Shown piece by piece: positions 497 to 58,477 of a stretch of DNA of 64,000 nucleotides. A program made the translations under genes and the position numbers. Source of the stretch: Somniosus microcephalus (Eukaryota); NCBI GenBank assembly GCA_052327205.1, contig CM126208.1, positions 273,296,001 through 273,360,000 on the forward strand, read 5' to 3'. Every line of letters starts with the position of its first letter. Within the stretch, counting starts at the first letter, position 1. The notes beneath the pieces were generated by a model that did no database searches, had not been told where the DNA came from, and saw only the letters and a list, made by a program, of their open reading frames with translations.

Positions 497-586
497 ATGG
501 GGACACCTGGAGCTGGAAGGAAACGAACACCTATTAAAGATAGATTCTCAGCTGAAGATGAAGCCTTAAGCCACATTGCCAGAGAG
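497..586 (+). CDS. LRRFIP2: First coding exon of leucine-rich repeat flightless-interacting protein 2 (exon about 406-586, 5'UTR 406-496)
   Basis: Translates to [30 protein letters not shown], matching the vertebrate LRRFIP2 N-terminus as I recall it ([30 protein letters not shown]) better than LRRFIP1. Polypyrimidine tract plus CAG acceptor at 403-405, in-frame TAG at 467-469, Kozak gaaaATGG, phase-0 GT donor at 587. Confidence 0.92.
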
Positions 587-3257: not shown

Positions 3258-3502
3258 CTGCCTTTTGTCTCCACGGGCCTATTACCATCTCGTCCGGCTT
3301 CGAATACCTTTTATTGTCTCTTTTGTTCGATCACAGCCTTGCCTTCGATCTATTTTCTTTTCTTTCCAGTTTTGAAGAAGGGTTTCGACCCGAAACGTCA
3401 ACTCAAATTTCTCTCCACGGATGTTGCCTGACCTGCTGAGTTTTTCCAGCATTTTCTGTTGTTATTTTGGATTTCCAGCATCTGCAGTATTTTGCTATCG
3501 CC
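3258..3502 (+). mobile_element. Penelope-like pseudo-LTR fragment containing a hammerhead motif
   Basis: Penelope terminal repeat (ctgacctgctgagtttttccagcattttctg...gcagtattttgct) flanked by direct repeat cttgcatt at 3250-3257 and 3503-3510. Confidence 0.75.
3368..3403 (+). ncRNA. Minimal type I hammerhead ribozyme motif with a mutated core (C3 to U)
   Basis: agtt-[t]TGAAGA-a-GGGT-ttcg-ACCC-GAAA-c-GTC-aact: stem I agtt/aact, stem II with UUCG loop, palindromic ACGT stem III, GUC triplet. Confidence 0.7.
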
Positions 3503-4887: not shown

Positions 4888-5750
4888 CATCATACAATTA
4901 CATAGAATCCTGTATACAGAAACAGGCCACTCAGCCCAACCAGTCCATGCCGGTGTTTATGCTCCACTCGAGCCTCCTTCCCATCCTTCTTCATCTCACC
5001 CTATCAGCATAACCCTCTATTCCCTTCTCCCTCATATGGGTATCTAGCTTCCCCTTAAATCCATCTATACTATTCGCCTCAACAGCTCCCCGTGGCAACG
5101 AGTTCCACATTCTCACCACTCTCGGGGTAAAAAAAAAAGTTTGTCTGAATTCCCTATTTGATTTCTTGGTGACTATCTTGTATTGATGGCCTCCAGTTTT
5201 GCTCTTCCCCCACAAATGGAAACACTCTAAAATGATGAAAGGTTTTGATAGAGTACATATAAAGACCTCCATTAGGTCACTCTTCAGCCTTCTCTGTTCA
5301 AGAGAGAAGAGACCCAGCCTGTTGACACTTTCCCAGTGGATATAACCTTGCATTTCTGGTATCATCGTTGCAAATCTATTTTGCACCCTCGCCAGTGTAC
5401 CTCTATCCTTTTCATAATATGGCGACCAGCACTGCACACAGTATTCCCAGTGTGGTCTAACCAAGGTTTATAATATGGCGACCAGCACTGTACACAGTAT
5501 TCCCAGTGTGGTCTAACCAAGGTTTATAATATGGCGACCAGCACTGCACACAGTATTCCCAGTGTGGTCTAACCAAGGTTTATAATATGGCGACCAGCAC
5601 TGTACACAGTATTCCCAGTGTGGTCTAACCAAGGTTTATAATATGGCGACCAGCACTGTACACAGTATTCCCAGTGTGGTCTAACCAAGGTTTGATACAA
5701 GTTTAGCATAACTTTACTACTTTGCAATTCTATCCCTGTAGAACTGAACC
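4888..5750 (-). mobile_element. CR1 LINE 3' fragment
   Basis: ORF 4991-5464 VRPHWEYCVQCWSPY...VVRMWNSLP, with a CR1 3' tail. Confidence 0.9.
5414..5693. repeat. Five tandem copies of a 56-bp unit derived from CR1 ORF2
   Basis: Unit ataatatggcgaccagcactgYacacagtattcccagtgtggtctaaccaaggttt starts at 5414, 5470, 5526, 5582 and 5638. Confidence 0.95.
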
Positions 5751-12010: not shown

Positions 12011-15000
12011 CGAGGCGCATCGCCCATTCCTTTCCTAGCCTCACCTCACCCCCTTGGAGGAGACGGTGCAGGCCATTCTTGGCAGGGGCATGGTTGAGCC
12101 CTTGGCCAGTGGTGGGGCTGAAAGGATACAAGATGTATGTTCTCCTCCTTCTGGCATGCACCTCTTGCTTTCCTGCCCTCCTGTCAGCACCACTCCACCA
12201 TTGTGCCTTCCTCATTTCACATACCCAAGAATTGCAACCTGCCTAGCCAATGGGACCGCAGGCAGCTGATTCCCTCCTGGATATTCCGGCCACAAAGGGG
12301 CTTTCTGGGATGCATCCTTCCGTCTGATTCCTCCTCTTCAGCTTCCTCCTCCTCTGTGTCTTTTTCTCTTCCTTCTGCAAGCGGATGCTGTAAATGTGAA
12401 ATGACAGCATAAAATGCTGGAGATACTCAGTTGGTCAGGCAGCATGTCAATTTGATGTGAACTCTGTTTGTTTTTCTCTCACTCCACAGATGTTGCGTGA
12501 CCTGCTGAGTATTTGCAGCATGTCCTGTCTTCTCAAAGGCCTTCATTTACCATCCGAGCCCTTGCAAGTGTCCAGCAGCAATCCCTACACAGTTTAAAAA
12601 AAACTTGCCCCATCTATTGCAGCAAGCCACCACTGCAATGAAATAAAAATAACAAAGTCCAAACCCTAAAATTCAAACTTACCTGAATGATATGTGTGAA
12701 GCGCTGCAGACATTGCTACTGTCAGTCTGCTTACACGCCCTGTTAACCTGGCATGCTTGGGACCCAGTGCTGAATTCAGCGCCAGGGTTGAAGTTAACGT
12801 TGGTGACATTAAGTCGCCGTTGCATGCTGATTGACGTCACCACGCTGCCATTATTTCCCCCAGGGTGGTACCAGTTACTGGCAGCGCAAAAGGAGAGAGA
12901 AATATGGCGGCCGTTGCGGGACCCGCCACCAGCTGGCAAAAGAGCGGCGGCTGCCATTTTATTGCCATTTCATGGTGCGACGGAGTGTCGGCAAGTAGAT
13001 TAATTTCTAGCTCTGTTTTTATATTCTATGTAAAGATGCTGTCTAATATTTGATCTGGGAGTGCTTGATGGTAACAGTACGGGGAAATAGAAAACTGTTG
13101 AATTGTTTTGCGCTGACATCCATCTTTAAAAATAAAATAATGTGTATGAAGTGACATTTATGGTACTAGCTTCACAGTCCAATAATCAAATCTGGTTGAG
13201 CGCAAAAAAAAAAGCATATGTGTCTGTGTAGTGCTACTGGGGCAAGGAAATTTGAGGTTGTTGAAATGAAATTGTTGTGTAAGAATGCTTCTTTCAGGTT
13301 TTTATGAAGGTACTTAAACAGTTTACCACTTGATTTGGTTTCATAAAACAGTTCTGTCCTGTAATTTCAGTTAATTGGTTTTAGTAAATCTTCACAACAG
13401 CTCGTCTGTATCGGGGTAGTTTCTAAAGTACAGTACATCTGATTTTAACTTTCTTACCTTTTTGCCAGAGATGTTACAATTGCAGATTGAGCTCCTATGC
13501 AGTTTATAATAATAACACTGTATTTGAGACAGAGGGATCTTTTGTCTTTTGTCTTTGCATGGATGAGTATCATGCAGCCTTGGGGGCTACATATAAAGTT
13601 TAAACCCATGTTGACAATATGCAGATATCTCAAACTGCCGATGGTAGCAGATCTTTGGATATTTGATATAGCCACCAATGAGGCAGTGGCACCACAGGCA
13701 GCCCTTTCTAAACCATAAGGCTCAAAGAATTCAAACGAGACAAACCAATCAATAAGACATATAATATGACTCAGTTGTTTGGGCTTTGAGAGTCAGATGG
13801 ACGGGGCTTGGAGCCGCAGGTTAGACAAACCCCGCATTAAGTTATTCATTTAAATCCGTAATCATGGCCTACTCAGTAGGTGTTAGTTAATCAGATGAAT
13901 TAGATTGGGGGTGGGTGGGGAGCAACACTTTCTGCCTAAAATTTTGCTGAAATTGACCAAGTTTAGACATGCTTGATTTACAATTAATAAGGATCTATCT
14001 TGGCCACGAAGTTCATGAGTAAACATGATTTGTTTTTATCTGTTGCATTTAGTTAAAATATTTTCTTCAAGACTGTTTTGTTACATGTCTTTTTTTGAGT
14101 GATTCCAAGTCTTTTTTTTTCCTGCCCAAATTTCTTTCCTCTTCTGAAGGCATTGACTGTTTGCCTTGTGGTTGAACAGGCCCAGGCCACCTGCTGATAC
14201 CTCACACATATGGCCTCCCTTCTTGCGTGAACCGAGATACTGACTGTTGATATGCTATTTGATATTGGAGGGCGCAAGAATTGAGGACAGTCCAGTTCTC
14301 AGCTGATGTCCACATGCATGCAATTTGTGCCAAGGTCATTGAATAACCTATGGGTGCAAGAAGCCGAGCTGTGCTTTCTCCCTCCTTAGCCTGAGGGCAC
14401 AAAGATCAGTTGTAACATCCCACTTGCTGCCCTGGCTGAAATTTAACATAGACCACAGTTTGAACTTCGGTCCCTCCGGCCTGCATGGTTTTATGCTAAA
14501 CTGGGCGATCAGGGGAGCTGAATTTCTGTTTCTCGTTGCTAATACTTTGAAGAACAATCCCCCCAAAAATTTAAACAGCTGGTTAATTGCAGCTTCAAAA
14601 GCATGGAATGTTCTGGGTGAGGGAAAAAAAATCCTTTCTCTTCTTGAAAATGAAGTTGGTGTCTCTGATCGAAACATGATTGTGTTATCTGAGGAGCTGA
14701 TGAGTCAGGCAGGTTGCTGAGGGAGGCTTGGCTTTTCATACTTCGAGTTCTATAGATAGAAATGAAAACAGAATATTCAGCTGCTGGGTTCAGAGTAATG
14801 CCGAACGAGATGAACCTTTTGGAGGGATGACAGGTGCAGCCTACAGTTGGGCTAATTTGTGTATAAAAGTTAGCCCTGGGTCAACTCTAGGGCAAAGGAG
14901 CCAATGTGTATGAGAAATCTCATGCTGGCAGCAGTAGATGTAGGGCCATTTATTATAGTTTTGTTCATTAAAGCCAGCTAACGTGAAGATGGACTAGCAC

Positions 15001-23817: not shown

Positions 23818-25095
23818 AACATAGAAACATAGAAGATAGGAGCAGGAGTAGGCCCTTCGAGCCTGCTCCGCCATTCAATGAGATCATGGCTGATCATCCA
23901 AATTCAGTACCCGGTCCCTGCCTTCTCCCCATATCCCTTGATCCCTTTAGCCTCAAGAAATATATCCAACTCCTTCTTGAATATATTTAATGAATTGGCC
24001 TCCACTGCCCTCTGTGGCAGAGAATTCCACAGATTCACCACTCTCTGGGTGAAGAAATTCCTCCTCATTTCAGTCCTAAATGGCTTACCCCTTATCCTTA
24101 GACTATGACCCCTGGTTCTGGACTCCCCGGCCATCAGAAACATCCTTCCTGCATCTAGTCTGTGCAGGCCTGACAGAATTTTATAGGTTTCGATGAGATC
24201 CCCTCTCAGCCTTCTAAACTCCAGTGAGTAGAAGCCCAATCGACATAATCTCTCCTCGTACGTCATTCCTGCCATCCCAGGTATCAGCCTGGTGAATCTT
24301 CGCTGCACTCCTTCCATGGCAAGAACGTCCTTCCTCAGGTAAGGCGACCAAAACTGCACACAATACTCAAGGTGCGGTCTCACCAAGGCCCTGTACAACT
24401 GTAGCAAGACATCCTTGTTCCTGTACTCGAACCCTCTTGCTACGAAGGCCAACATACCATTTGCCGCCTTAACCGCCTGCTGCACCTGCATGCTGACCTT
24501 CAGCGACTGGTGCACAAGAACACCCAGGTCTCTTTGCACTTCCCCTTCTCCCAATCTATTGCCATCCAAATAATAATCTGCCTTCCTGTTTTTGCCACCA
24601 AAGTGGATAACCTCACATTTATCCACATTATAGTGCATTTGCCATGTTTCTGCCCAATCACCCAACCTGTCCAAATCGTACTGGAGTTTCACGACATCCT
24701 CCTCACAGCTTACCCTCCCACCCAGCTTTGTGTTGTCTGCAAATTTGGAGACATTACATCCAATTCCCTCGTCCAGATCATTAATATATATTGTGAACAG
24801 CTGGGGTCCTAGGACCGATCCTTGCGGTACCCCACTAGTCACTGCCTGCCACTCGGAAAACGACCCGTTTATTCTAACTCTTTGCTTTCTGTCCGCCAAC
24901 CAGTTCTCTATCCAAGTCAATACCTTGCCCCCAATCCCATGTGCCTTAATTTTGCACGCTAATCTCTTATGCGGGACCTTATCGAAAGCCTTCTGAAAGT
25001 CCAAATACACCACATCCACTGGTTCTCCCTTATCTATTTTACCAGTTACATCCTCAAAAAATTCCAGTAGATTAGTCAAGCATGATTTACCTTTT
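23818..25095 (-). mobile_element. Young 5'-truncated CR1 LINE with an uninterrupted RT C-terminal frame
   Basis: 402-aa ORF ([44 protein letters not shown]) and an intact tail with (tttctatg)n. Confidence 0.95.
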
Positions 25096-26606
25096 GTAGG
25101 CACTGAGCTCAATTGTTGTGGCGCTAACCCCAGCTCTGATCATGGCTGAGATTGTTTAACTGAGCACAGAACAGGAATTAAATCTGGGGTGTTGGCCTGA
25201 CTCTTTCTTGGCGGGCAGGGTGGTCGGGGGGGGGAGCGGCGGTGGTGGAATTCTAATGATTGCTGGAGCTCTCTAATATATTTTCTGTTGGTACTTTATG
25301 TACTGCTCTTATCACTCTAGAATTTCAGTTCCATCCACTGCACAACACTTGCAACTTTGCCAACCATGACTTGATATTGAAATTGGACTGACTTGCATGG
25401 GAACAGATTTCACAAACGTTGATTGCTACTTCTGTTGGGATGTTACATGAGCACATGCTCCTCCCATTGCTACAGCCACACTTTACTATATTAAAAAGTT
25501 TAAAAAAAACTATCATCAGTAGAATAAATGCCACACTGTTCCTTTGCTTACCCATATGATGAGGTGAGTTTAGAAACTATACAGTATTGCTGTTTGTTCC
25601 ATAGTTCACTTTCTTTACACAAAGGTAGACACTAAAAATGGCTCTCGGTGAGATACAGAGTAAACGTGTCCCTTGCTTCATTCACTGAACTTGTTATAGT
25701 GAGGATCAAGAGTTCACCCTTTTGTGCAGGTTGCTGGCTTTGTGTTTAAAACTCTGATGTGACTAGATAATCTGCACATTACAGAAACTGATCTATCATT
25801 TGGCATGAAAAGTAATTTTGTTACATTTTTCAGGGTTGGGTATCTTAACCTACGAGTTGATCTTTTGCCAGACATAATTATTGACCAATGTGGAACACTT
25901 CACCTTTGCAGCAAGATAGTCAACACCGTTATAGACCTAATGCTTCCCCTACGCACTTGTACGTGTACCTTTTTTAGGCCTCGTTAAACACAGATGAAGT
26001 GAAAGTCATTAATTTTTTTGCTGTAAAATATTAACAACAAAGGTTTGACACCATCAAGAATTCTAATTAAGCTGCCTGAAATAACTCTCCAATTGTGCCA
26101 GTTAGTCTTCTGGGAGACCTGGCATTGGCTGAGCTTGTGTGTAACAGTGCGATACTCATTAAACTGTGCGTATTGTTGGCCGATCTTCGGAAGTTATTTT
26201 CAAGAATGAGCAATTGGATATCACACTGCCTGCCATTCATGTCCCCGCACATGCAGCACACACAAAGACACGCATACCAAGTTCTGCTTTCTTAAGGGGG
26301 AAGAGAGCGTAAGAGGAGGATATAATGATTTAGTTGCTAGTTGAATTCACCTCTTCCAGATCATAGAACTGTTTTTATAATAAACACTGGTTGTCTGAAG
26401 CTCTATCTCTCCCTCCTAACCAGGATCATTATGGCTAAAACTTGTGGCTGATTGCATCACTACAAGATAATTACAGCTAAGAAAGGCTATTTGGCTCACC
26501 TTAATGCACCCATCAGAATTTAATTCTAAGGTTCCCCCCATTGTGGTATTCAAATGTTTCTTCAGCGAATCTAGGGTATTCACTTATTCTGAAGAACTTG
26601 CATGCA

Positions 26607-28180: not shown

Positions 28181-31100
28181 ATAAGAACATAAGAAATAGG
28201 AGCAGGAGTAGGCCATACGGCCCCTCGGGCCTGCTCCGCCATTCAATAGGATCATGGCTGATCCGAATCTAGACTCACGTCCACTTCACTGCCCTCTCCC
28301 CGTAACCCCTAATTCCCTTATCTGCTAGGAAACTGTCTATCTCCGATTTAAATTTATTTAATGTTGCAGCTTCCACAGCTCTCTGGGGTAGCAAATTCTG
28401 TAGATTTACTACCCTCTGAGTGAAGAAGTTTCTCTTCATCTCAGTTTTGAAAGGGCAGCCCCTTATTCTAAGATTATGCCCCCTAGTTCTAGTCTCACCC
28501 ATCCGTGGAAACACCCTCCCGATCAAGCCCCCTCACAATCTTATATGTTTTGAGAAGATCACCTCTCATTCTTCTGAACTCCAATGAGTAGAGGCCCAAC
28601 CTACTCAACCTTTCCTCATACGCCAACCCCCTCATCTCTGGAATCAACCGAGTGAACCTTCTCTGAACCACCTCGAGAGCAAGTATATCTTTTCTTAAAT
28701 ATGGAAACCAAAACTGCACGCAGTATTCCAGGTGTGGCCTCACCAATACCTTGTATAACTGCAGCAAGACGTCCCTGTTTTTATACTCCATCCCCCTTGC
28801 AATAAAAGCCAAGATTCCATTGGCCTTCCTGATCACCTGCTGCACCTGCATACTAACTTCTTGTGTTTCATGCACCAGGACCCCTAGATCCCTTTGTACT
28901 GTAGCACTTTGCAGTTTCTCTCCATTTAGATAATAACTTGCTCTTTGATTTTTTTCTGCCAAAATGCATAACCTCACACTTTCCAATATTATATTTCATC
29001 TGCCAAATCTCTGCCCACTCACTTAGCCTGTCTATGTCCTTTTGCAGGTTTTTTATGTCCTCCTCACTCACTGCTTTCCCTCCCATCTTTGTATCGTCGG
29101 CAAACTTGGATACGTTGCACTCGGTCCCTTCCTCCAAATCGTTAATATAGATTGTAAAGAGTTGGGGTCCCAGCACTGACCCCTGCGGAACACCACTAGT
29201 TACTGATTGCCAGCCCAAGAACGAACCATTTATCCCAACTCTTTGTTTTCTGTTAGATAGCCAATCTTCCACCCATGCCAGTATATTACCCCCAATCCTG
29301 TGATTTTTTTATCTTGATCAGTAATCTTTTGTGTGGAACCTTGTCAAATGCCTTTTGGAAGTCCAAATACACTACATCCACTGGTTCCCCTTTATCCACC
29401 CTGTATGTTACATCCTCAAAGAATTCGAGCAAATTTGTCAAACATGACTTCCCCTTCATAAAACCATGCTGACTCTGTCCTATTAAATTATGTTTATCCA
29501 AATGCTCTGTTACTGTTTCCTTAATAATGGACTCCAACATTTTGCCAACCACAGATGTTAGGCTAACTGGTCTATAGTTTCCAGCTTTTTGTCTACTTCC
29601 CTTATTAAATAAGGGTGTTACATTAGCAGTTTTCCAATCTGCTGGGACCTTTCCTGAGTCCAGGGAGTTTTGGAAAATAATCACCAATGCATCCACAATC
29701 TCTACCGACACTTCTCTCAAGACCCTAGGATGTAGGCCATCAGGTCTGGGGGATTTATCCGCATTAAGTCCCATTATTTTACCAAGAACCACCTCCTTAG
29801 TGATTTTAATTGTGTTTAGCTCCTCCACCGCCCCCCCCCCCCCCCCCCCCCCCATTGCCCCCTGTTTGTCCAGTGTTGGGATATTTTTAGTGTCCTCTAC
29901 TGTAAAGACTGATACAAAATATTTGTTCAGCGTCTTTGCCATCTCCATGTTCCCCATCACTAGTTTCCCGGTCTCATCCTCTAAGGGACCAACGTTCACT
30001 TTAGCCACCCTTTTTCTTTTTATATAGCTGTAGAAACTCTTGCTATCTGTTTTTATATTTTTTGCTAGTTTACTTTCATAATCTATCTTCCCTTTCTTAA
30101 TTAATCTTTTAGTTATTCTTTGCTGGCTTTTAAATGCTCCCCAATCTTCTATCCTCCCACTAGATTTGGCTACTTTATATGCCCTTGTTTTCAGTCGGAT
30201 ACTATCCTTTATTACTTTACTAAGCCATGGATGGCTGTCTTTTCTTTTACTCCCCTTTTTCCTCAGTGGAATATATTTATCTTGAAAGATGTGAAATATC
30301 TCCTTGAATGTAGACCACTGCTCTTGTACCGTCTTACACTTTAATCTGTTTTCCCAGTCCACTTTAGTCAATTCTACTCTCATACCTTCATAGTCTCCTT
30401 TATTTAAGCTCAGTACGCTGGTTTGAGATCCAATTCTCTCACCCTCAAACTGAATTTGGAATTCAACCATATTATGGTCACTCATTCCAAGGGGATCCTT
30501 TACTAGGACATTTTTTATTAATCCTGTCTCATTACGCAGGACCAGATCTAAGATTGCCTGCCCCCTGGTTGGTTCAGTTACATACTGTTCAAGGAATCCG
30601 TCCCTAATACACTCTATGAACTCTTCCTCAAGGCTGCCATGCCCAATTTGATTAGTCCAGTCAATATGAAAGTTAAAATCCCCCATGATTATAGCTGTTC
30701 CCTTATTACAAGCCCCAACTATTTCCTGATTTATACTCCGACCAACAGAGTTGCAACTGTTAGGAGGCCTATAGACTACGCCCACTAGTGACTTCTTCCC
30801 CCTATTATTCCTTATCTCCACCCAAACTCTTTCACTATCCTGATCCTTTGACCCAATATCATTTCTGAGTATTGCAGTGATTCCATCCTTGATTAACATA
30901 GCAACCCCACCTCCCTTTCCTTCCTGTCTGTCCTTCCTAATTGTCAAATACCCTTGTATGTTTAGTTCCCAGTCATGATCATCTTGCAGCCATGTTTCCG
31001 TAATGGCCACCAGATCATACCCATGTGTAGTTATTTGTACCGTCAACTCGTCTATTTTGTTATGAATGCTGCGTGCATTCAGATAAAGAACTTTCAAATA

Positions 31101-31729
31101 TGTTTTTTGACAATTTATTCCTGCTTTTACCCCTTTTACTACTTTACCTTTATCATTATACATTCTGTCCCTTCCTGACATGCTCTGGTTTTTAATTTCC
31201 CCACTGCTACCTTGCTCTATTGCCTTCTCCGCTGTCATTTTTATTTTTCACTCTCTTAAAACCTCCCCCCACTAATTAGTTTAAAGCCCTCTCTACAGCC
31301 CTAGTTATTCGATTCGCCAGGATTCTAGTCCCAGCACTGGCCAAGTGGAGTCCGTCCCAACGGAACAGATCTCTCCTGTCCCAGTACTGATGCCAGTGTC
31401 CCAAGAAGCAAAACCCATTTTTCCCACACCAGTCTGAGCCACGCACTTAACACTCTAATTTTATTTACCCTAGCCAAATTTGCACGTGGATCAGGTAGTA
31501 ATCCAGAGATTATTACCCTTGTGGTTCTGCTTTTTAATTTGGCCCCTAGCTGCTCAAACTCCCTCAGCAGAACCTCTTTCCTTGTCCTATCTATGTCGTT
31601 GGTACCAACATGGACCACGACAAGTTTCTCTCCAGCCCAGAGGAGATGTCCTTAACCCTGGCACCAGGCAGGCAACACAGCCTTCGGGACTCTCGCTGTC
31701 AGCTGCAAAGAACCCTATCTATCCCCCTA
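28181..31729 (-). mobile_element. Near full-length young CR1 LINE
   Basis: ORF1 esterase remnant (VHVGTNDI...IISGLLP, 31325-31618), 650-aa ORF2 segment with APE endonuclease (YLNARSI, ITETWL, YRPPNS, GDFN, SDH) and RT start, RT continuing across frameshifts, intact 3' tail. Confidence 0.95.
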
Positions 31730-36263: not shown

Positions 36264-36507
36264 TAAATCAAAAATAAAATACTGCAGATGCTGGAAATCT
36301 GAAAACAAAAACTGAAAAGGCTGGAAATGCTTATCTGTGGAAAACAGAAGTCACTCGATGTTTCAGGCCTTAAGACCTTTCTGCAGGACTGGGAGGTATT
36401 TCATCTGTAATCTCTCCTAGTCCTGAGGAAGGGTCTTGAGGGATGAAATGTTGGGTGGCTTCTGTATTTCCACAGATGCTGCATGACCTGAGCATTTCCT
36501 GCTTGTT
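36264..36507. mobile_element. Inverted pair of Penelope pseudo-LTR halves
   Basis: The left half is a reverse-complement pLTR and the right half is a forward pLTR. 12-bp TSD ctgctctttgga at 36252-36263 and 36508-36519. Confidence 0.7.
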
Positions 36508-36516
36508 CTGCTCTTT

Positions 36517-36720
36517 GGACACCCTTGCTTTAAGGGGGGGGACACCCTTGCTTTAAGGGGGGGGACACCCTTGCTTTAAGGGGGGGGACACCCTTGCTTT
36601 AAGGGGGGGGACACCCTTGCTTTAAGGGGGGGGACACCCTTGCTTTAAGGGGGGGGACACCCTTGCTTTAAGGGGGGGACACCCTTGCTTTAAGGGGGGG
36701 ACACCCTTGCTTTAAGGTGT
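36517..36720. repeat. Minisatellite, 9 copies of a 22-23 bp unit
   Basis: Unit acacccttgctttaag(g)n, with starts at 36519, 36542, 36565, 36588, 36611, 36634, 36657, 36679 and 36701. Confidence 0.95.
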
Positions 36721-44159: not shown

Positions 44160-45070
44160 TAGCAAAATACTACGGATGCTGGAAATCTGAAATAACAACA
44201 GAAAACGCTGGAAAAACTCAGCAGGCCAGGCAACATCCGTGGAGAGAGAAACAGAGTTAATATTCAAGGGCTGATGGTGCAAGGCAAAAGGGGGTGTTAA
44301 TGGGACAAGAAAAGAAACAAAAGATGAGTTGAGAGGAGGTGAAAATACTAACACCAGAACCATTACCAGCACATGCTGTTCAAGAAAATGGGAGCAGTGG
44401 TTATTATCTAAAGTTGCTAAACTCCGTGTTGAGGCTGGAAGGCTGTAGAGTGTCTAATGGAAAGATGAGGTGCTGTTCCTCAAGCTTGTGTTGAGCTTCA
44501 TTCGAACAGTGTAGGAGGACGAGGACAGAGATGTGGGAGTGGGAGTGGGGCAGAGAATTCAAGTGGCAAATGACCGGAAGCTCAGTCAAGTTTGCAGACT
44601 GACGAGAGGTGTTCAGCAAAGTGAACATCCAATCTGTGTTTAGTCTGCCCAATGTAGAGGAGACCACATCGAAAACAGTATACTAAGTTGAAAGAAGTAC
44701 AAATAAATTGCGAATTCACCTGGAAGGAGTGTTTGGGGCCCTGGATGGCGGGAAGGGAGGAGGTGAAAGGACAGGTGCTGTATCTCCTGTGCTTGCATGC
44801 GAAGGTGTCTTGGGAAGGGGAGCAGGTGTTGCAGGTGTTTGAAGAGAGGATCAGGGTGTTGCGGAGCGAACGGTCCCTTTGGAGTGCTGAAAGGGATGGG
44901 GAAGGTGTGTTTGGTGGTGGCGGAAATGGCCGAGGATGATCTGTTGAATGTGGGGACTGGTGGGGTGGGAGGTGAGGACATGATTCTGGGAGGGAGAGGA
45001 AGGGGTGAGGGTAGAAGTACGGGAAATGGGAAAGGTGCCGTCAACTGCAGTGGAGGGGAAATCCTTAGCT
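44160..45070 (-). mobile_element. Penelope-like element 3' portion (GIY-YIG endonuclease remnant and pLTR)
   Basis: PVICHLNSLPHSH...KLEEQHLIFPLDTLQPSSLNTEFSNFR resembles a PLE C-terminus, followed by the same pLTR family as 3258 and 53105. Confidence 0.8.
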
Positions 45071-45869
45071 GAGGTCTATTGGGAGCACTTGTAAGCAATA
45101 CTTGATGCTTGTTCATGTTAAATTTCATCTCGGAACACAGGAGCAGGAGTCGGAAATTCAGCAGCTTGAGTTTGTTCCGCCATTCTAACTCCATTTACCT
45201 GCCTTTGTTCCGTACCACTGGGTCCCCTTGCCTAACAAAAATCTTATCAATCTCAGTCTTGAAAGCTCCAATTGTCCCACCTTTTGGGGAGAGTTTCAGA
45301 TTTCTACTACCCTTAAAAGAACTTCCTGGTTTCCCTCCTAAATGACCTAGCACTAATTTTAAGATTGTCTCAACGTTCTTGACTTACACTATCAGAGGAA
45401 ATAATTTCTCTGTATCGATGCTATCAAATCCTTTTAACATTTTAAATACAATCTGCCATTCTTCTTCTGTTCATTTTGTCTAACTCATTTTGTTATCTCC
45501 TCACAATTAATAGGCCCTATTAGTTTGACACTATCTGTTAATATGACCAGTTTGCTTTGATTTTATACTACTGTAGCATTGTTGTGAAGTGATTTACCTT
45601 TGCTTTGACACTGCAGTTATACGTTACATGCAGGCTGAATCCAGAGTCTTCTCCCAATCTGAAGTAGGAGCCAAGTGAAGTGAGACTCCCTGGAGGAGAT
45701 GGTCTCACTCTTATTGCTTTAGAGTCAGTTTGGTCTTTGACACCTAATTTACTAAGTTTAGCATTGGTGCAAATTCAAACATACTTCACATCAACACTAA
45801 AGTTATAAACACTGATCTCTGTGGCACCCCATTTGATACCTTCGTCCACCTTAGACGCTTTCTAAGCAC

Positions 45870-53063: not shown

Positions 53064-53104
53064 ATTGTTTTGAAGAAGGGTTGATACCCAAAGCATTAAC
53101 TTGT

Positions 53105-53411
53105 TTCTTCACCTGTCCCATTACCGTCTCCTCTTGCCTTGAATATCTCTTAATGTCTCTTTCCTTCTCCTGCCTTCCATCCTATCACAGACCTTCCCTC
53201 TTGTTCTTTCACCCCCTCCCCCATTTCCCAGCCCCTAAACTTGCTTTAAAATCTGTTCCTTTTCCTGCTTTTTTCCAGTTCTGACGAAGGGTTTCGACCT
53301 GAAACGTTAACTCGTTTCTCTCTCCACGGATGTTGCCTGGCCTGCTGAGTATTTCCAGCGTTTTCTGTTGTTGTTTCGGATTTCCAGCATCCGCAGTATT
53401 TTGCTATTGTT
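53105..53411 (+). mobile_element. Penelope pLTR insertion inside an older Penelope pLTR (53070-53520)
   Basis: 15-bp TSD aaagcattaacttgt at 53090-53104 and 53412-53426. Confidence 0.82.
53277..53312 (+). ncRNA. Minimal type I hammerhead ribozyme motif with an intact core
   Basis: agtt-CTGACGA-a-GGGT-ttcg-ACCT-GAAA-c-GTT-aact: stem I agtt/aact, stem II with UUCG loop, palindromic stem III, GUU triplet. Confidence 0.78.
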
Positions 53412-53748
53412 AAAGCATTAACTTGTCTGTTCTCTTCACAGACGTTGACTGACTTGCTGTCTGTTACCAACATTTTCAGTTTTTGTCTGGCGTTCCCAGT
53501 ATCTGTGGTATCTTGCTTTTTATATCGGTTTGAAAGAATTGGAAATCGATCAAGTGCAGTAGACGAGTAGATTATGATTGAATTTTTGCTGTAAGTTTGT
53601 GCCACCCTATCCGAGCAGTCTTCTCCAGTCTTCAGTCCCAGCCCACATCCTCCACTCTTCTGACTCTTCGTCTCACTTTTCAGTCGTTACGCCTCTGCTC
53701 TTGGAAACTCTGCCAAACCACTTTAATTCCTCATTTTATGACTTCAGC

Positions 53749-56700
53749 GCCGACCTGTATGGCTGCTGTTTTACAAGCTCCTCCCCAACTGGTATTTTAA
53801 TGTATTTAATATTGTATTTTAATATATCGTACTGTTAGTTTTTAGTATTCTACTGTTTAGTATTTAGCACTCTAGTTTTAGTATTAGTAGTTTAGTTGTT
53901 TTTTAAAAAATATTCTACTGTTTAACCGACCTGTGTGGCTGCTGTTTTATGAGCTCCCCAACTGGTATTTCAATGTTGTATTTAATGTATTTAATGTTGT
54001 ATTTTAATATATCGTAGTTAGTTTTTTAGTATTCTACTGTTTAGTACAGAGGGCGGTGGAGGCCAGTTCATTAAATATATTCAAGAAAGAGTTGGATATA
54101 TTTCTTAAGGCTGAAGGGATCGCGGGATATGCGGAGAAAGCAGGGACAGGGTACTGAATTTGGATGATCAGCCATGATCACATCGAATGGCGGAGCAGGC
54201 TCGAAGGGCCGAATGGCCTACTCCTGCTCCTATCTTCTATGTTTCTATGTTATTTAGCATTCTAGTTTTAGTATTAGTAGTTTAGTTGTTTTTTAAAAAA
54301 ATATTCTACTGTTTAACCGACCTCTGTGGCTCATGAGGGTAGCTGCTGTTTTACGAGCTCGTCCACAACTTTCCACTTTATTTATTATTTTATTGTTATT
54401 ATTAAACAATTTTGTAAGTACTGTTTCTTCACTTATCCGCTACGACCGTCAATCACTTCTGGACATAAGATCGTCCAGAGATATAGGACCTACCCCCAAT
54501 TTTTCGAACTGGGATTCTGCTGCTACGACCATCTACCCTCCCACCTGCTTACCTGACTTCATTCCTGTGATCAGGAAGCGAACGACGGCGCAAGCGGGGC
54601 AGACGCGCAGGTACATTAGTGAAGCTGAGACGACGTGAACACCACCCCCCCCCCCCTTCCGAGTATTCTCCTGGCGAATGTGCAGTCACTGGACAATAAG
54701 CTGGACGAACTCAGGGGGAGGCTCACCTTCCAGCGAGACATTAAGAACTGCAATGTCTTGATTTTTACTGAGACTTGGCTTGATCCATCGACACCAGCTT
54801 CGGCCATTCAACCAGAGGGATTCAACATTCACCGGCTATACCGAACAAAGGACTCGGGGAAGAATAGAGGGGGTGGAGTATGTTTCATGATCAACAATTC
54901 TTGGTGTTCCGACGTGGAACTACTTACATCTTCTTGTTCACCTGATCTTGAACACCTGATGATCAAATGCCGACCCTTCTACCTCCCGAGAGAGTTCTCA
55001 TCCGTGATCTTTACAGCGGTGTATATTCCACCACAGGCCAACGCAAATAGGGCACTAAACGAGCTGTATGGGACCATTAGCAGGCTTGAAACTTCCCATC
55101 CAGAGGCTGCATTCATCGTGGCTGGCGATTTCAACAAAGCCAATCTGAAGAAAGTACTGCCTAAATACCATCAGCATATCACCTGCCCAACGCGAGCCAA
55201 GAACACACGAGATCACGTTTACACTCCATTCCGGGATGGATACAAGGCCCTCCCCCGCCCTCCCTTCGGCAAATCAGATCACGACTCCATCCTGCTGCTA
55301 CCCACCTATAGGCAGAAACTGAAACAGGAAAAGCCTGTGATGAGATCTCTACAACGCTGGTCGGATCAATCAGACGCTGTTACAAGACTGTTTTGATTCC
55401 ACTGACTGGGATATGTTCCGGAATGCCTCGAACAATGACATCAACACATATACAGATTCAGTCATTAGTTTCATAAACAAGTGCATAGACGATGTTGTTC
55501 CGAGGATTGTTGTACGAACATTTCCCAACCAGAAACCATGGGTAAATGGCGATATCCGTGCTATGCTAAAAGCACGGTCCATCGCATTCAACTCTGGGGA
55601 CATGGATGAGTACAAGAAATCAAGGTACGACCTCAGAAAAACCATCAAAAATGCAAAAAGACAATACACGGACAAAGTGGAGTCACACTATCATAGCTCA
55701 GATTCGCGAAGGATGTGGAGTGGACTACAATCTATTACAGATTACAAAGGGAAACCCAACTGTGTCATGCCCAGCAATGCGCCTCTCCCGGATGAGCTTA
55801 ACACTTTTTACGCACGGTTTGAGGCCAACAACAACTGGCCTGTTACAAGGGCGCCCGCGGCTCAGGACGACCGGGTCTTCTCAATCTCTGTGGCTGACGT
55901 GAGCAAGACTTTTAAGAGAGTGAACACCCACAAAGCACCCGGTCCAGATGGAATCCCTGGGCGTGTCCTTAGAGCATCCGCTGACCAGCTGGCAGCCGTG
56001 TTTACGGATATATTCAACCATTCACTGTACCAGTCTGTAGTCCCCACCCGCTTCAAGATGACATCAGTTATTCCAGTCCCCAAAAAAACAAAAGTAACCT
56101 GTTTAAACGACTACCGCCCCATAGCACTCACTTCTGTCATCATGAAGTGCTTTGAGAGGCTGGTCAAAACCCACATCAACTTGTTACTACCTGACACACT
56201 GGACCCACTCCAATTTGCCTATCGCCCAAACAGATCTAGGGATGATGCCATCGCCACTGTACTGCACACTGTCTTATCACACCTGGATAAGAGGAACACC
56301 TATGTGAGAATGTTGTTCATTGATCATAGTTCAGCATTCAATACCATTATCCCCTCCAAGCTTGTCAACAAGCTCAGTGAGCTAGGACTTAACACCTCCC
56401 TATGCAACTGGATCCTGGACTTACTGATGGGAAGACCCCAGGTGGTGAAAATAGGCAGAAACACCTCCTCCACACTGATCCTGAACACGGGAACTCCCCA
56501 GGGTTGTGTGCTCGGCCCCCTTCTGTACTCCCTGTTTATTCACGATTGTGTGGCCACGCACAACTTCAACTCCATCATCAAGTTTGCTGATGACACTACC
56601 GTTGTAGGCCTGATCACAGATGGCGACGAGACAGGCTACAGGGAGGAGGTAAGAGCCCTAGGAGAATGGTGCAAGTACAACAACCTCTCCCTCAACATCA

Positions 56701-57447
56701 GCAAAACAAAGGAGATGATCGTGGACTACAGGAAACGGCAGGGGGAGGGACACACCCCAATCTACATCGAAGGGGCTGAGGTGGAGAGGGTCAGCAGCTT
56801 CAATTCCTGGGTGTATTCATTATGGAGGACTTAACGTGGTCTCATCACATCGACGTTGTAACCAAGAAGGCATGCCAATGCCTGTTCTTCCTCAGGAGAC
56901 TGAAGAAATTTGGAATGGCCCCCCAGATTCTCACCAACTTCTACCGGTGCACCATCGAGAGTATCCTGTCCGGCTGCATCACTACCTGGTATGGCAACTG
57001 CACCGCCACAGACCGCAAGGCTCTACAGATGGTAGTGAAAGCTGCACAACACACTATAGGAATTAAACTACCTGCTGTGCAGGATATCTACCCCGAGGGG
57101 TGCCGGGGGAAGGCCCTGAGAATCATTAAAGACGCGAGTCACCCCAGACACAACCTCTTCACCCTGCTCCCGTATGGTAAGAGATACCGAAGCATAGGGT
57201 CTCGTACCAACAAGGTTTCGAAACAGCTTCTACCCCCAGGCCATAAGACTCATGAACGATTAATTTATTATTATTTATTACTGTTTTATTTATTATTACT
57301 GTCTTTCTATTAGTGTTTCTATTAGTATTTTTATCATTGTTATGCCATATTTATTCCAATGTTGGGAGGACTCGTAAAAATCAACATTTCATTGTGCAGT
57401 ACACACGTCTGCTGCATATATGACAAATAAAATTGAATTGAATTGAA
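53749..57447 (+). mobile_element. Near full-length Rex1/Babar LINE (APE endonuclease + RT, frameshifted)
   Basis: IRYDRQSLLDIR leader, PLPSILLANVQSLDNKLDEL, FTETWL, GDFN, SDH, KAPGPDGIPGRVL, NDYRPIALTS, GTPQGCVLGP, KFADD, NFYRCTIESIL, and an (aattg)n tail. The 5' boundary is inferred. Confidence 0.93.
54046..54250 (+). mobile_element. Short CR1 3' end inserted in the repeats upstream of the Rex1 ORF
   Basis: Close to the reverse complement of 23820-24015. It interrupts the gtttag|ta|tttagc motif that is intact in the preceding repeat unit. Confidence 0.88.
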
Positions 57448-57554: not shown

Positions 57555-58477
57555 GGTGAAAGGGGTGGGGTTGTGGGTGTGGTGGTTGTGGGGCGGTGGC
57601 GGTTGTTTGGGGCGGGTGGGGTGTTTGTGTGGGGTGGTTGTGGGGCGGGGGCGGTTGTGGGGGTGTGTGTATGGGGCGGGGGTGTGTGTATGGGGCGGGG
57701 GGGTGGTTGGTTTGGGGGATGGGGTGGTTGTGGGGCAGGGGTGGTTGTGTGGTAGGGCTGGGGGGAGTTGTGGGGCGGGGGTGTGGTTGGTTTGGGGGGG
57801 TGGGGCGGATGTGTGTGGGGCGAGGGTGGTTGTGGGATGGGGTTGATGGGGTGGGGTGATTGTGGGGTGGGGCGGGGGGGTGGTTGGTTTGTGGGGTGGG
57901 GCGGGGGGGTGGTTGGTTTGTGGGGTGGGGCGGGGGGGTGGTTGGTTTGTGGGGTGGGGCGGGGGGGTGGTTGTGGGATGGGGTTGATGGGGCCGGGGGT
58001 GGGGTGATTGTTGGGTAGGGCGGGGGGGTGGTTGGTTTGTGGGGTGGGGCGGGGGGGTGGTTGTGGGATGGGGTTGCGGGGCGGTGGTGGGGTGATTGTG
58101 GGGTGGGGCGGGGGGGTGGTTGGTTTGTGGGGTGGGGCGGGGGGGTGGTTGGTTTGTGGGGTGGGGCGGGGGGGTGGTTGTGGGATGGGGTTGATGGGGC
58201 CGGGGGTGGTTGGTTTGTGGGGTGGGGCGGGGGGGTGGTTGGTTTGTGGGGTGGGGCGGGGGGGTGGTTGTGGGATGGGGTTGATGGGGTGGGGTGATTG
58301 TGGGGTGGGGCGGGGGGGTGGTTGGTTTGTGGGGTGGGGCGGGGGGGTGGTTGTGGGATGGGGTTGATGGGGCCGGGGGTGGGGTGATTGTGGGGTGGGG
58401 CGGGGGGGGGGTTGGTTTGTGGGGTGGGGCGGGGGGGTGGTTGTGGGATGGGGTTGCGGGGCGGTGGTGGGTGGGTG
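57555..58477. repeat. G/T-rich complex minisatellite (~29-bp core), G-quadruplex-prone
   Basis: Units ggggtggggcgggggggtggttggtttgt interspersed with ggttgtgggatggggttgat variants. Confidence 0.95.

Follow-up and report, generated by a model that had tools for sequence, protein, structure and literature searches.

Metazoan Penelope-like elements (PLEs) are known to carry minimal hammerhead ribozymes (min-HHRs), a class described by Cervera and de la Peña (2014, PMC4209133). The min-HHRs lie in the pseudo-LTR (pLTR), have a 4-bp helix I, one additional base lying between positions 9 and 10.1 and a palindromic 15.2–16.2 segment without a helix III loop, and number in the thousands, most of them standing singly, within consensus families. 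In Schistosoma, U3 and A8 were reported to covary (PMC4209133). U3-A8 is a known natural variant (PMC4209133; PMC3088659). A single Schistosoma min-HHR gave no detectable cleavage, dimers and trimers had low activity, and host factors were suggested (PMC4209133). An anole PLE hammerhead cleaved in vitro at 500 nM RNA with the element protein, and the single changes C3G and G8C abolished cleavage. Insertion in vitro did not require the anole hammerhead, and its cut site coincided with the end of no RNA-seq read (PMC11167929). One of nine Xenopus dimers cleaved (bioRxiv 2026.07.22.740005). Naiads proliferate without a hammerhead (PMC8557442).

Two further systems are related. The non-LTR retrozymes are PLE-derived and non-coding, carry type I hammerheads in tandem arrays of at least two hammerhead-bearing units, and were present in a cartilaginous fish in the published survey (bioRxiv 10.64898/2026.07.22.740005). 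The amniote RECK and DTNB hammerheads are type I motifs of retroelement origin in vertebrate introns; they are canonical, have tertiary contacts, and each is one locus conserved across species (PMC6155905).

The DNA analyzed here (the window) is a 64-kb stretch from Somniosus microcephalus, positions 273,296,001 to 273,360,000 of contig C7. An exon near its start (Table 1) was located with short peptide motifs, and the order of the Pfam exons confirmed it. The Pfam LRRFIP domain begins in the next exon, 4.5 kb downstream of the window, and extends through five more, every one of them on the plus strand. The intron between the first two exons is about 68 kb and holds the motif at 53277–53312. 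Because of this exon arrangement, the motif is placed by gene structure in the first coding intron, sense to the pre-mRNA, the orientation that the preliminary description had stated. For 34 residues of a solved LRRFIP1 chain, the paralog on contig C4 matched 27 and the window gene 22 (hand count). Since the C4 paralog is nearer to LRRFIP1, the window gene was assigned by exclusion to LRRFIP2 on sequence grounds. No LRRFIP processed pseudogene matched the window exon. Dozens of intronless LRRFIP copies (processed pseudogenes), mostly broken by stops, were seen on contigs C2–C41, with clusters on C39 and C41; such amplification is unusual for LRRFIP.

Table 1. Features of the host exon, the hammerhead motif and its surroundings (window coordinates)
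Feature	Position	Strand	Basis or remark
First coding exon of LRRFIP gene, then GT donor	497..586	+	translation, donor
Older decayed hammerhead of related pLTR; G12, A15.1 and G16.2 altered	53066..53101	+	
Target-site duplication, left copy, 15 bp, perfect	53090..53104	.	
Penelope-like fragment, 307 nt, 5'-truncated; 3' UTR and pLTR, no ORF	53105..53411	+	
Stem I, 5' strand (AGTT)	53277..53280	+	sequence
Core CTGACGA	53281..53287	+	sequence
Extra A	53288	+	sequence
Stem II (GGGT/ACCT around TTCG)	53289..53292 with 53297..53300	+	sequence
GAAA	53301..53304	+	sequence
ACGT palindrome	53304..53307	+	sequence
U17 (GUU site; predicted cut after it)	53308	+	sequence
Stem I, 3' strand (AACT)	53309..53312	+	sequence
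Competing 6-bp hairpin, predicted; buries G12–G16.2	53301..53318	+	pair probabilities 0.98–0.99
Target-site duplication, right copy, 15 bp	53412..53426	.	older pLTR remainder continues to about 53500

Read letter by letter, the plus strand at 53277–53312 contains a minimal type I hammerhead. It has the core CUGANGA ... GAAA of PLE min-HHRs with A15.1-U16.1 and H17, and both stem I and stem II are paired over 4 bp. Helix III has no loop and is palindromic at 15.1–16.1 (ACGU, 53304–53307). The extra nucleotide between 9 and 10.1 is an A in 59 of 60 collected motifs, and the motif sits in the pLTR of a PLE. The core, the 4-bp stem I, stem II with UUCG, the extra A, ACGU and GUU had all been noted in the preliminary description, which also took the motif for a Penelope-type minimal type I hammerhead with a known extra nucleotide; both points held. 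A minimal-hammerhead descriptor matched once in the 64-kb window. When 60 sequences of 64 kb were simulated with the dinucleotide composition of the window, the same descriptor matched neither strand of any of them. The motif is real and chance is excluded. Rfam gave no match in the whole window at the gathering score, and a second Rfam scan gave five weak matches, none of them a hammerhead. This miss reflects the limit of the models for loop-less motifs and is no evidence against the motif.

The motif and its family share with the published min-HHRs the pLTR location, the 4-bp helix I, the extra nucleotide, the palindromic and loop-less helix III, the thousands of mostly single copies and the U3-A8 covariation. 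It differs from those of Schistosoma in a shorter helix II (4 bp versus 7–8; PMC4209133). In the window subfamily, stem II base pair 10.1-11.1 is a G·U wobble, whereas the G-C pair of the paper is highly conserved, though not obligatory. GUU is the main site in the C3-G8 subfamilies here, and a large U3·G8 subfamily is present, which further sets the family apart from the min-HHRs of PMC4209133. A review counts GUU among the triplets that can be cleaved (PMC3138052). The motif departs from the retrozymes, as it lies in a solo pLTR fragment at 53105–53411 whose neighboring motif has decayed. It also differs from the RECK type, which has canonical helices, a loop 1–loop 2 tertiary contact and activity as a monomer, in that its stem III is not closable and its stem I has 4 bp. 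The amniote motifs are conserved at one locus, and the motif at 53277–53312 is minimal, young and part of a multicopy repeat.

Aligned over 307 columns with the pLTR of L035, a full-length copy, the carrier is 84% identical. The two halves of an older pLTR hammerhead matched the family profile across the insertion (E 2e-13). The hammerhead that the younger 307-nt fragment interrupts is older, dead and of the same type. The 307-nt piece, a 3' end, was copied by reverse transcription and integrated into this older pLTR in LRRFIP2 intron 1, where 15 bp of the target were duplicated. The target duplication spans the cut site of the older hammerhead. The nesting of one fragment in another hints that insertion may favor pLTR sequence. 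Two DNA runs gave contigs that extended to the insertion junctions without satisfying the 31-letter bridging rule.

Thirty family copies were fetched. Their upstream homology ended at varying points, consistent with variable 5' truncation, and some had inverted pLTR junctions at the motif. Upstream, the longest copies reached a GIY-YIG domain, whose Pfam matches (E 1.6e-4 and 3.7e-4) narrowly missed the cut-off and which is preceded in translations by a C-X4-C-X2-C linker. A reverse transcriptase (RT) was matched in the upstream region in one of two RT-bearing frames (RVT_1 E 4.4e-6, under the cut-off). The layout of L035 is pLTR-RT-EN-pLTR, with an RT followed by a C-terminal GIY-YIG between the two pLTRs, and its hammerheads are 3,235 nt apart. 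By this order of domains, the carrier family is an EN+ PLE. The parent element is likely of the Neptune type, placed against Nematis by the linker motif alone, which fits the Neptune definition CX2-5CxxC (PMC8557442). It also resembles Neptune EN+ PLEs in the RT-then-GIY-YIG order, the DKG motif, the tandem unit of about 3.2 kb, the 5' truncation and the inverted pLTR junctions; the window copy at 53105–53411 differs from them in having no coding sequence (PMC8557442). On the minus strand of L035, two same-strand C3-G8 hammerheads of different subfamilies lie 178 nt apart, at 5515 and 5693. As a natural pair at close range, they would lend themselves to an assay of dimers.

Other repeats surround the motif. 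About 3–6 kb ahead of the window, and thus shortly upstream of the first coding exon of LRRFIP2, lies a near full-length Penelope copy (L044, minus strand, 89% identical to L035) that is surrounded by several further pLTRs. In the window, 12381–12528 and 36276–36514 are older decayed inverted pLTR pairs of related Penelope families, and 44160–45194 is a minus-strand Penelope copy that retains a GIY-YIG remnant and whose 3' UTR is different and without hammerhead core. Long and fairly intact LINE-type endonuclease/RT frames are present in the intron at 29286–31247, 23904–25139 and 54629–57313. Tandem arrays occupy 5355–5749 (56-nt unit), 36517–36700 (23-nt unit) and 57560–58470 (G-rich).

Patterns were counted over the 6.45-Gb genome, and each control pattern gave 0 matches. 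The near-exact motif pattern had 3,798 matches, and a 31-mer of the downstream tail had 19,663. Four core-variant patterns summed to 38,893 hammerhead motifs: 17,589 with C3-G8, 7,453 with U3-A8, 12,688 with U3·G8 and 1,163 (3%) with C3·A8. Positions 3 and 8 can thus pair (C-G, U-A or U·G) in 97% of them, and C·A was expected 4,154 times under independence. Among the first 100 C3·A8 matches listed, 93 were the CpG-decay form (hand count). The preliminary description had taken the motif for something singular, but it belongs to a repeat with about 39,000 copies. About 9,000 were reported in Xenopus under different search criteria (PMC4209133). Within the gene body, five core-intact family motifs are sense and four are antisense; a count from one gene has no power and gives no hint of purging.

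Of 30 tail-selected copies, 28 were parsed. Pair 3-8 was U-A in 17 of them and C-G in 8; one copy had U·G and two had C·A, both of the latter at truncation junctions. Pair 2.1-1.1 was C-G in 17, U·G in 6, U-A in 4 and C·A in 1. Pair 10.1-11.1 was G-C in 18 and G·U in 8, with G·U in the subfamily of the window motif, and site 17 carried U in 24 copies and C in the other 4. GUU and G10.1·U11.1 were considered as decay of the window copy. This was rejected, as GUU ended all 100 near-exact matches listed (of 3,798) and U17 was found in most of the parsed copies. Across the copies compared, the extra A, GUU and G10.1·U11.1 appear as family traits. The UUCG loop appears incidental, because it is closed by U-A and varies freely across copies. 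Likewise, U3 in the copy at 3368 was not accepted as decay, since U3·G8 is a class of 12,688 copies.

Compensatory changes across families were found at pairs 3-8 and 2.1-1.1, arising from few independent events, so the expectation in the preliminary description that the copies should covary was borne out in stem I (2.1-1.1) and in the core (3-8). In a hand-picked 12-copy alignment, 99.1% of cells were paired and 8 of 500 shuffles scored as high, which is a modest signal. A tree of the flanks, with the ribozyme left out, was built from 64 of 81 motifs and midpoint-rooted; six with non-homologous upstream sequence and 11 that were too short were excluded. A top group of five, which included palindromic-junction and long-branch rows, was disregarded, and an earlier flank tree had been built without U3·G8 rows. 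In the tree, 29 of 31 U3-lineage rows formed one clade (100/96), and a large U3·G8 group was nested within U3-A8 (100/87). Because the copies are not independent, the 3-8 covariation signal amounts to about one double change plus one one-sided change. The parent elements were probably selected for the fold, judging from the 97% of motifs that keep the tertiary 3-8 pair. Such selection acted on master elements, not on the dead copy at 53277–53312. No description of a U3·G8 subfamily and nothing specific on a shark Penelope hammerhead was found in the literature searched; subscription papers and supplements, including those of PMC4209133, may hold either.

Stem III has two pairs without a loop and cannot be closed by a single strand, so only a dimer could cleave. 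A cut after U53308 needs the partner's core, because in a double hammerhead each core cuts the site of the other copy. The monomer at 53277–53312 was predicted to take a non-hammerhead fold of -6.7 kcal/mol, no better than shuffles (z -0.11). The self double hammerhead had -3.7 kcal/mol versus -13.4 for two monomers. The nearest intact same-strand family hammerhead lies 50 kb upstream (3368..3403, +; U3·G8 core, G10.1-C11.1, GUC site), and the next intact sense motif on the other side is 57 kb downstream. The copy at 3368–3403 is the only plausible cis dimer partner within the window, and its double hammerhead with the motif had -6.4 kcal/mol versus -13.1 for the monomers. The older motif 210 nt upstream and the duplicated target site were both discounted as cis partners, given a dead core and pairing probabilities of at most 0.0003. 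In a 430-nt context, the stem I pair probability was 0.0001, and the competing hairpin is perfect in this copy through the absence, at about 53313, of one base that most copies have. Under the same model, the stem I probability was at most 0.25 in all 30 other family copies. The folding model does not single out the window copy: nearest-neighbor folding omits tertiary contacts and misses the hammerhead in all 30 other copies.

Two RNA runs of one study, ordinary cDNA libraries whose source organism is possibly other than the species of the window, were searched for reads. Family reads were plentiful over the fragment at 53105–53411, and the unique flank at 53438–53724 had a depth of at most 0.3, uninformative for the locus. 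No read-end pile-up was seen at 53308/09 in the two runs, whose cDNA libraries could miss nascent or cyclic-phosphate ends. All 30 bins of the full element L035 were covered. Among 15 of 16 rows listed, no pile-up was seen at its three hammerhead sites, which is a weak result because such libraries could miss ends. A read-end peak at L035:4517-4518 was taken as a mapping edge; L035 departs there from other copies, and the nearest cut site is about 60 nt away.

We read the motif, with a probability of about 0.85, as the pLTR hammerhead of a truncated Penelope-like copy, likely of the Neptune type, that is likely an inert passenger in the intron. Judging from anatomy and from assays in other species, head-to-tail tandem copies of the parent element would pair two motifs via the ACGU palindrome into a double hammerhead, which may slowly cut multimeric element RNA. 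The window copy would be transcribed within the pre-mRNA, given the structure of the gene. Its cleavage before splicing is predicted to be negligible, because stem III cannot form in a lone copy, the 4-bp stem I is weak, the base of stem II is G·U, the site is GUU and no competent partner lies nearby. GUU is cleaved more slowly than GUC. The preliminary description had suggested that the copy could nick the nascent pre-mRNA. Such nicking is unlikely: a lone copy cannot close stem III, the core that would cut at U53308 must come from a partner and none that is competent lies near, and the single Schistosoma min-HHR gave no detectable cleavage (PMC4209133).

The copy might instead be cut in vivo at a low rate by dimerizing in trans with family transcripts, or with the copy at 3368 aided by a chaperone or the element protein, so that LRRFIP2 pre-mRNA would be slightly lowered or altered, with the copy itself under no host selection. 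Its core is intact, as are its stems and palindrome, AGUY/RACU and ACGU recur in tens of thousands of compatible partners, and family RNA is abundant, spanning the full element in both runs. Host factors have been proposed for min-HHRs (PMC4209133), and the anole hammerhead did cleave with the element protein (PMC11167929). Such a dimer, however, would be held by only 4+4+4 bp, is 7–10 kcal/mol less favorable than the monomers and competes with the hairpin at 53301–53318; the family reads show no end pile-up, and the reported activity is low even in linked dimers. We consider this improbable. It is hardly credible that the motif is a domesticated intronic ribozyme regulating LRRFIP2 processing in the manner of the conserved RECK and DTNB hammerheads. 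The sense orientation in intron 1 would suit such a role, as would a motif identical to the subfamily type in a fragment that is 84–89% identical to other copies as a whole. Nothing specific to the locus was found, however, and the perfect target-site duplications mean that the copy is young. Since 17,589 copies share the intact pattern, intactness is the default, and the motif has neither the tertiary contacts nor the longer stem I that characterize the amniote hammerheads (PMC6155905).

The family motif may also have ceased to be a ribozyme and been kept for another role (protein binding, a promoter or a priming structure), a hammerhead in looks only. This is unlikely, though less so than the alternatives above. 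In its favor, the U3·G8 subfamily, nested in U3-A8, reached its copy number even though a single change at 3 or 8 should impair catalysis (C3G and G8C abolish anole cleavage; PMC11167929), and Naiads spread without any hammerhead (PMC8557442). Against it, the swap from C3-G8 to U3-A8 restores exactly the tertiary pair of the active core, and C3·A8 is rare and mostly of CpG-type decay among the first 100 listed; this covariation rests on few events. Another role for the family is compatible with the inert-passenger reading of the window copy.

The copy at 53277–53312 is itself of little import, being one among tens of thousands. The core-pair history of the family is more interesting, and the U3·G8 expansion and trans cleavage are worth testing. 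Because the C3-G8, U3-A8 and U3·G8 subfamilies have all amplified, the family is a test bed for whether hammerhead cleavage is needed for Penelope mobility. It is conceivable, though very improbable in our judgment, that introns with some 39,000 half-ribozymes, all compatible with one another, and plentiful family RNA make up a trans-cleaving network across the genome, in which the core of one transcript cuts the site of another and pre-mRNAs such as that of LRRFIP2 are nicked. On that reading, the three core states with thousands of copies each would be a natural experiment on the amount of cleavage that Penelope needs. If sense intronic copies do cleave in trans, repeat-borne ribozymes would be an unrecognized load on pre-mRNA processing in very large genomes.
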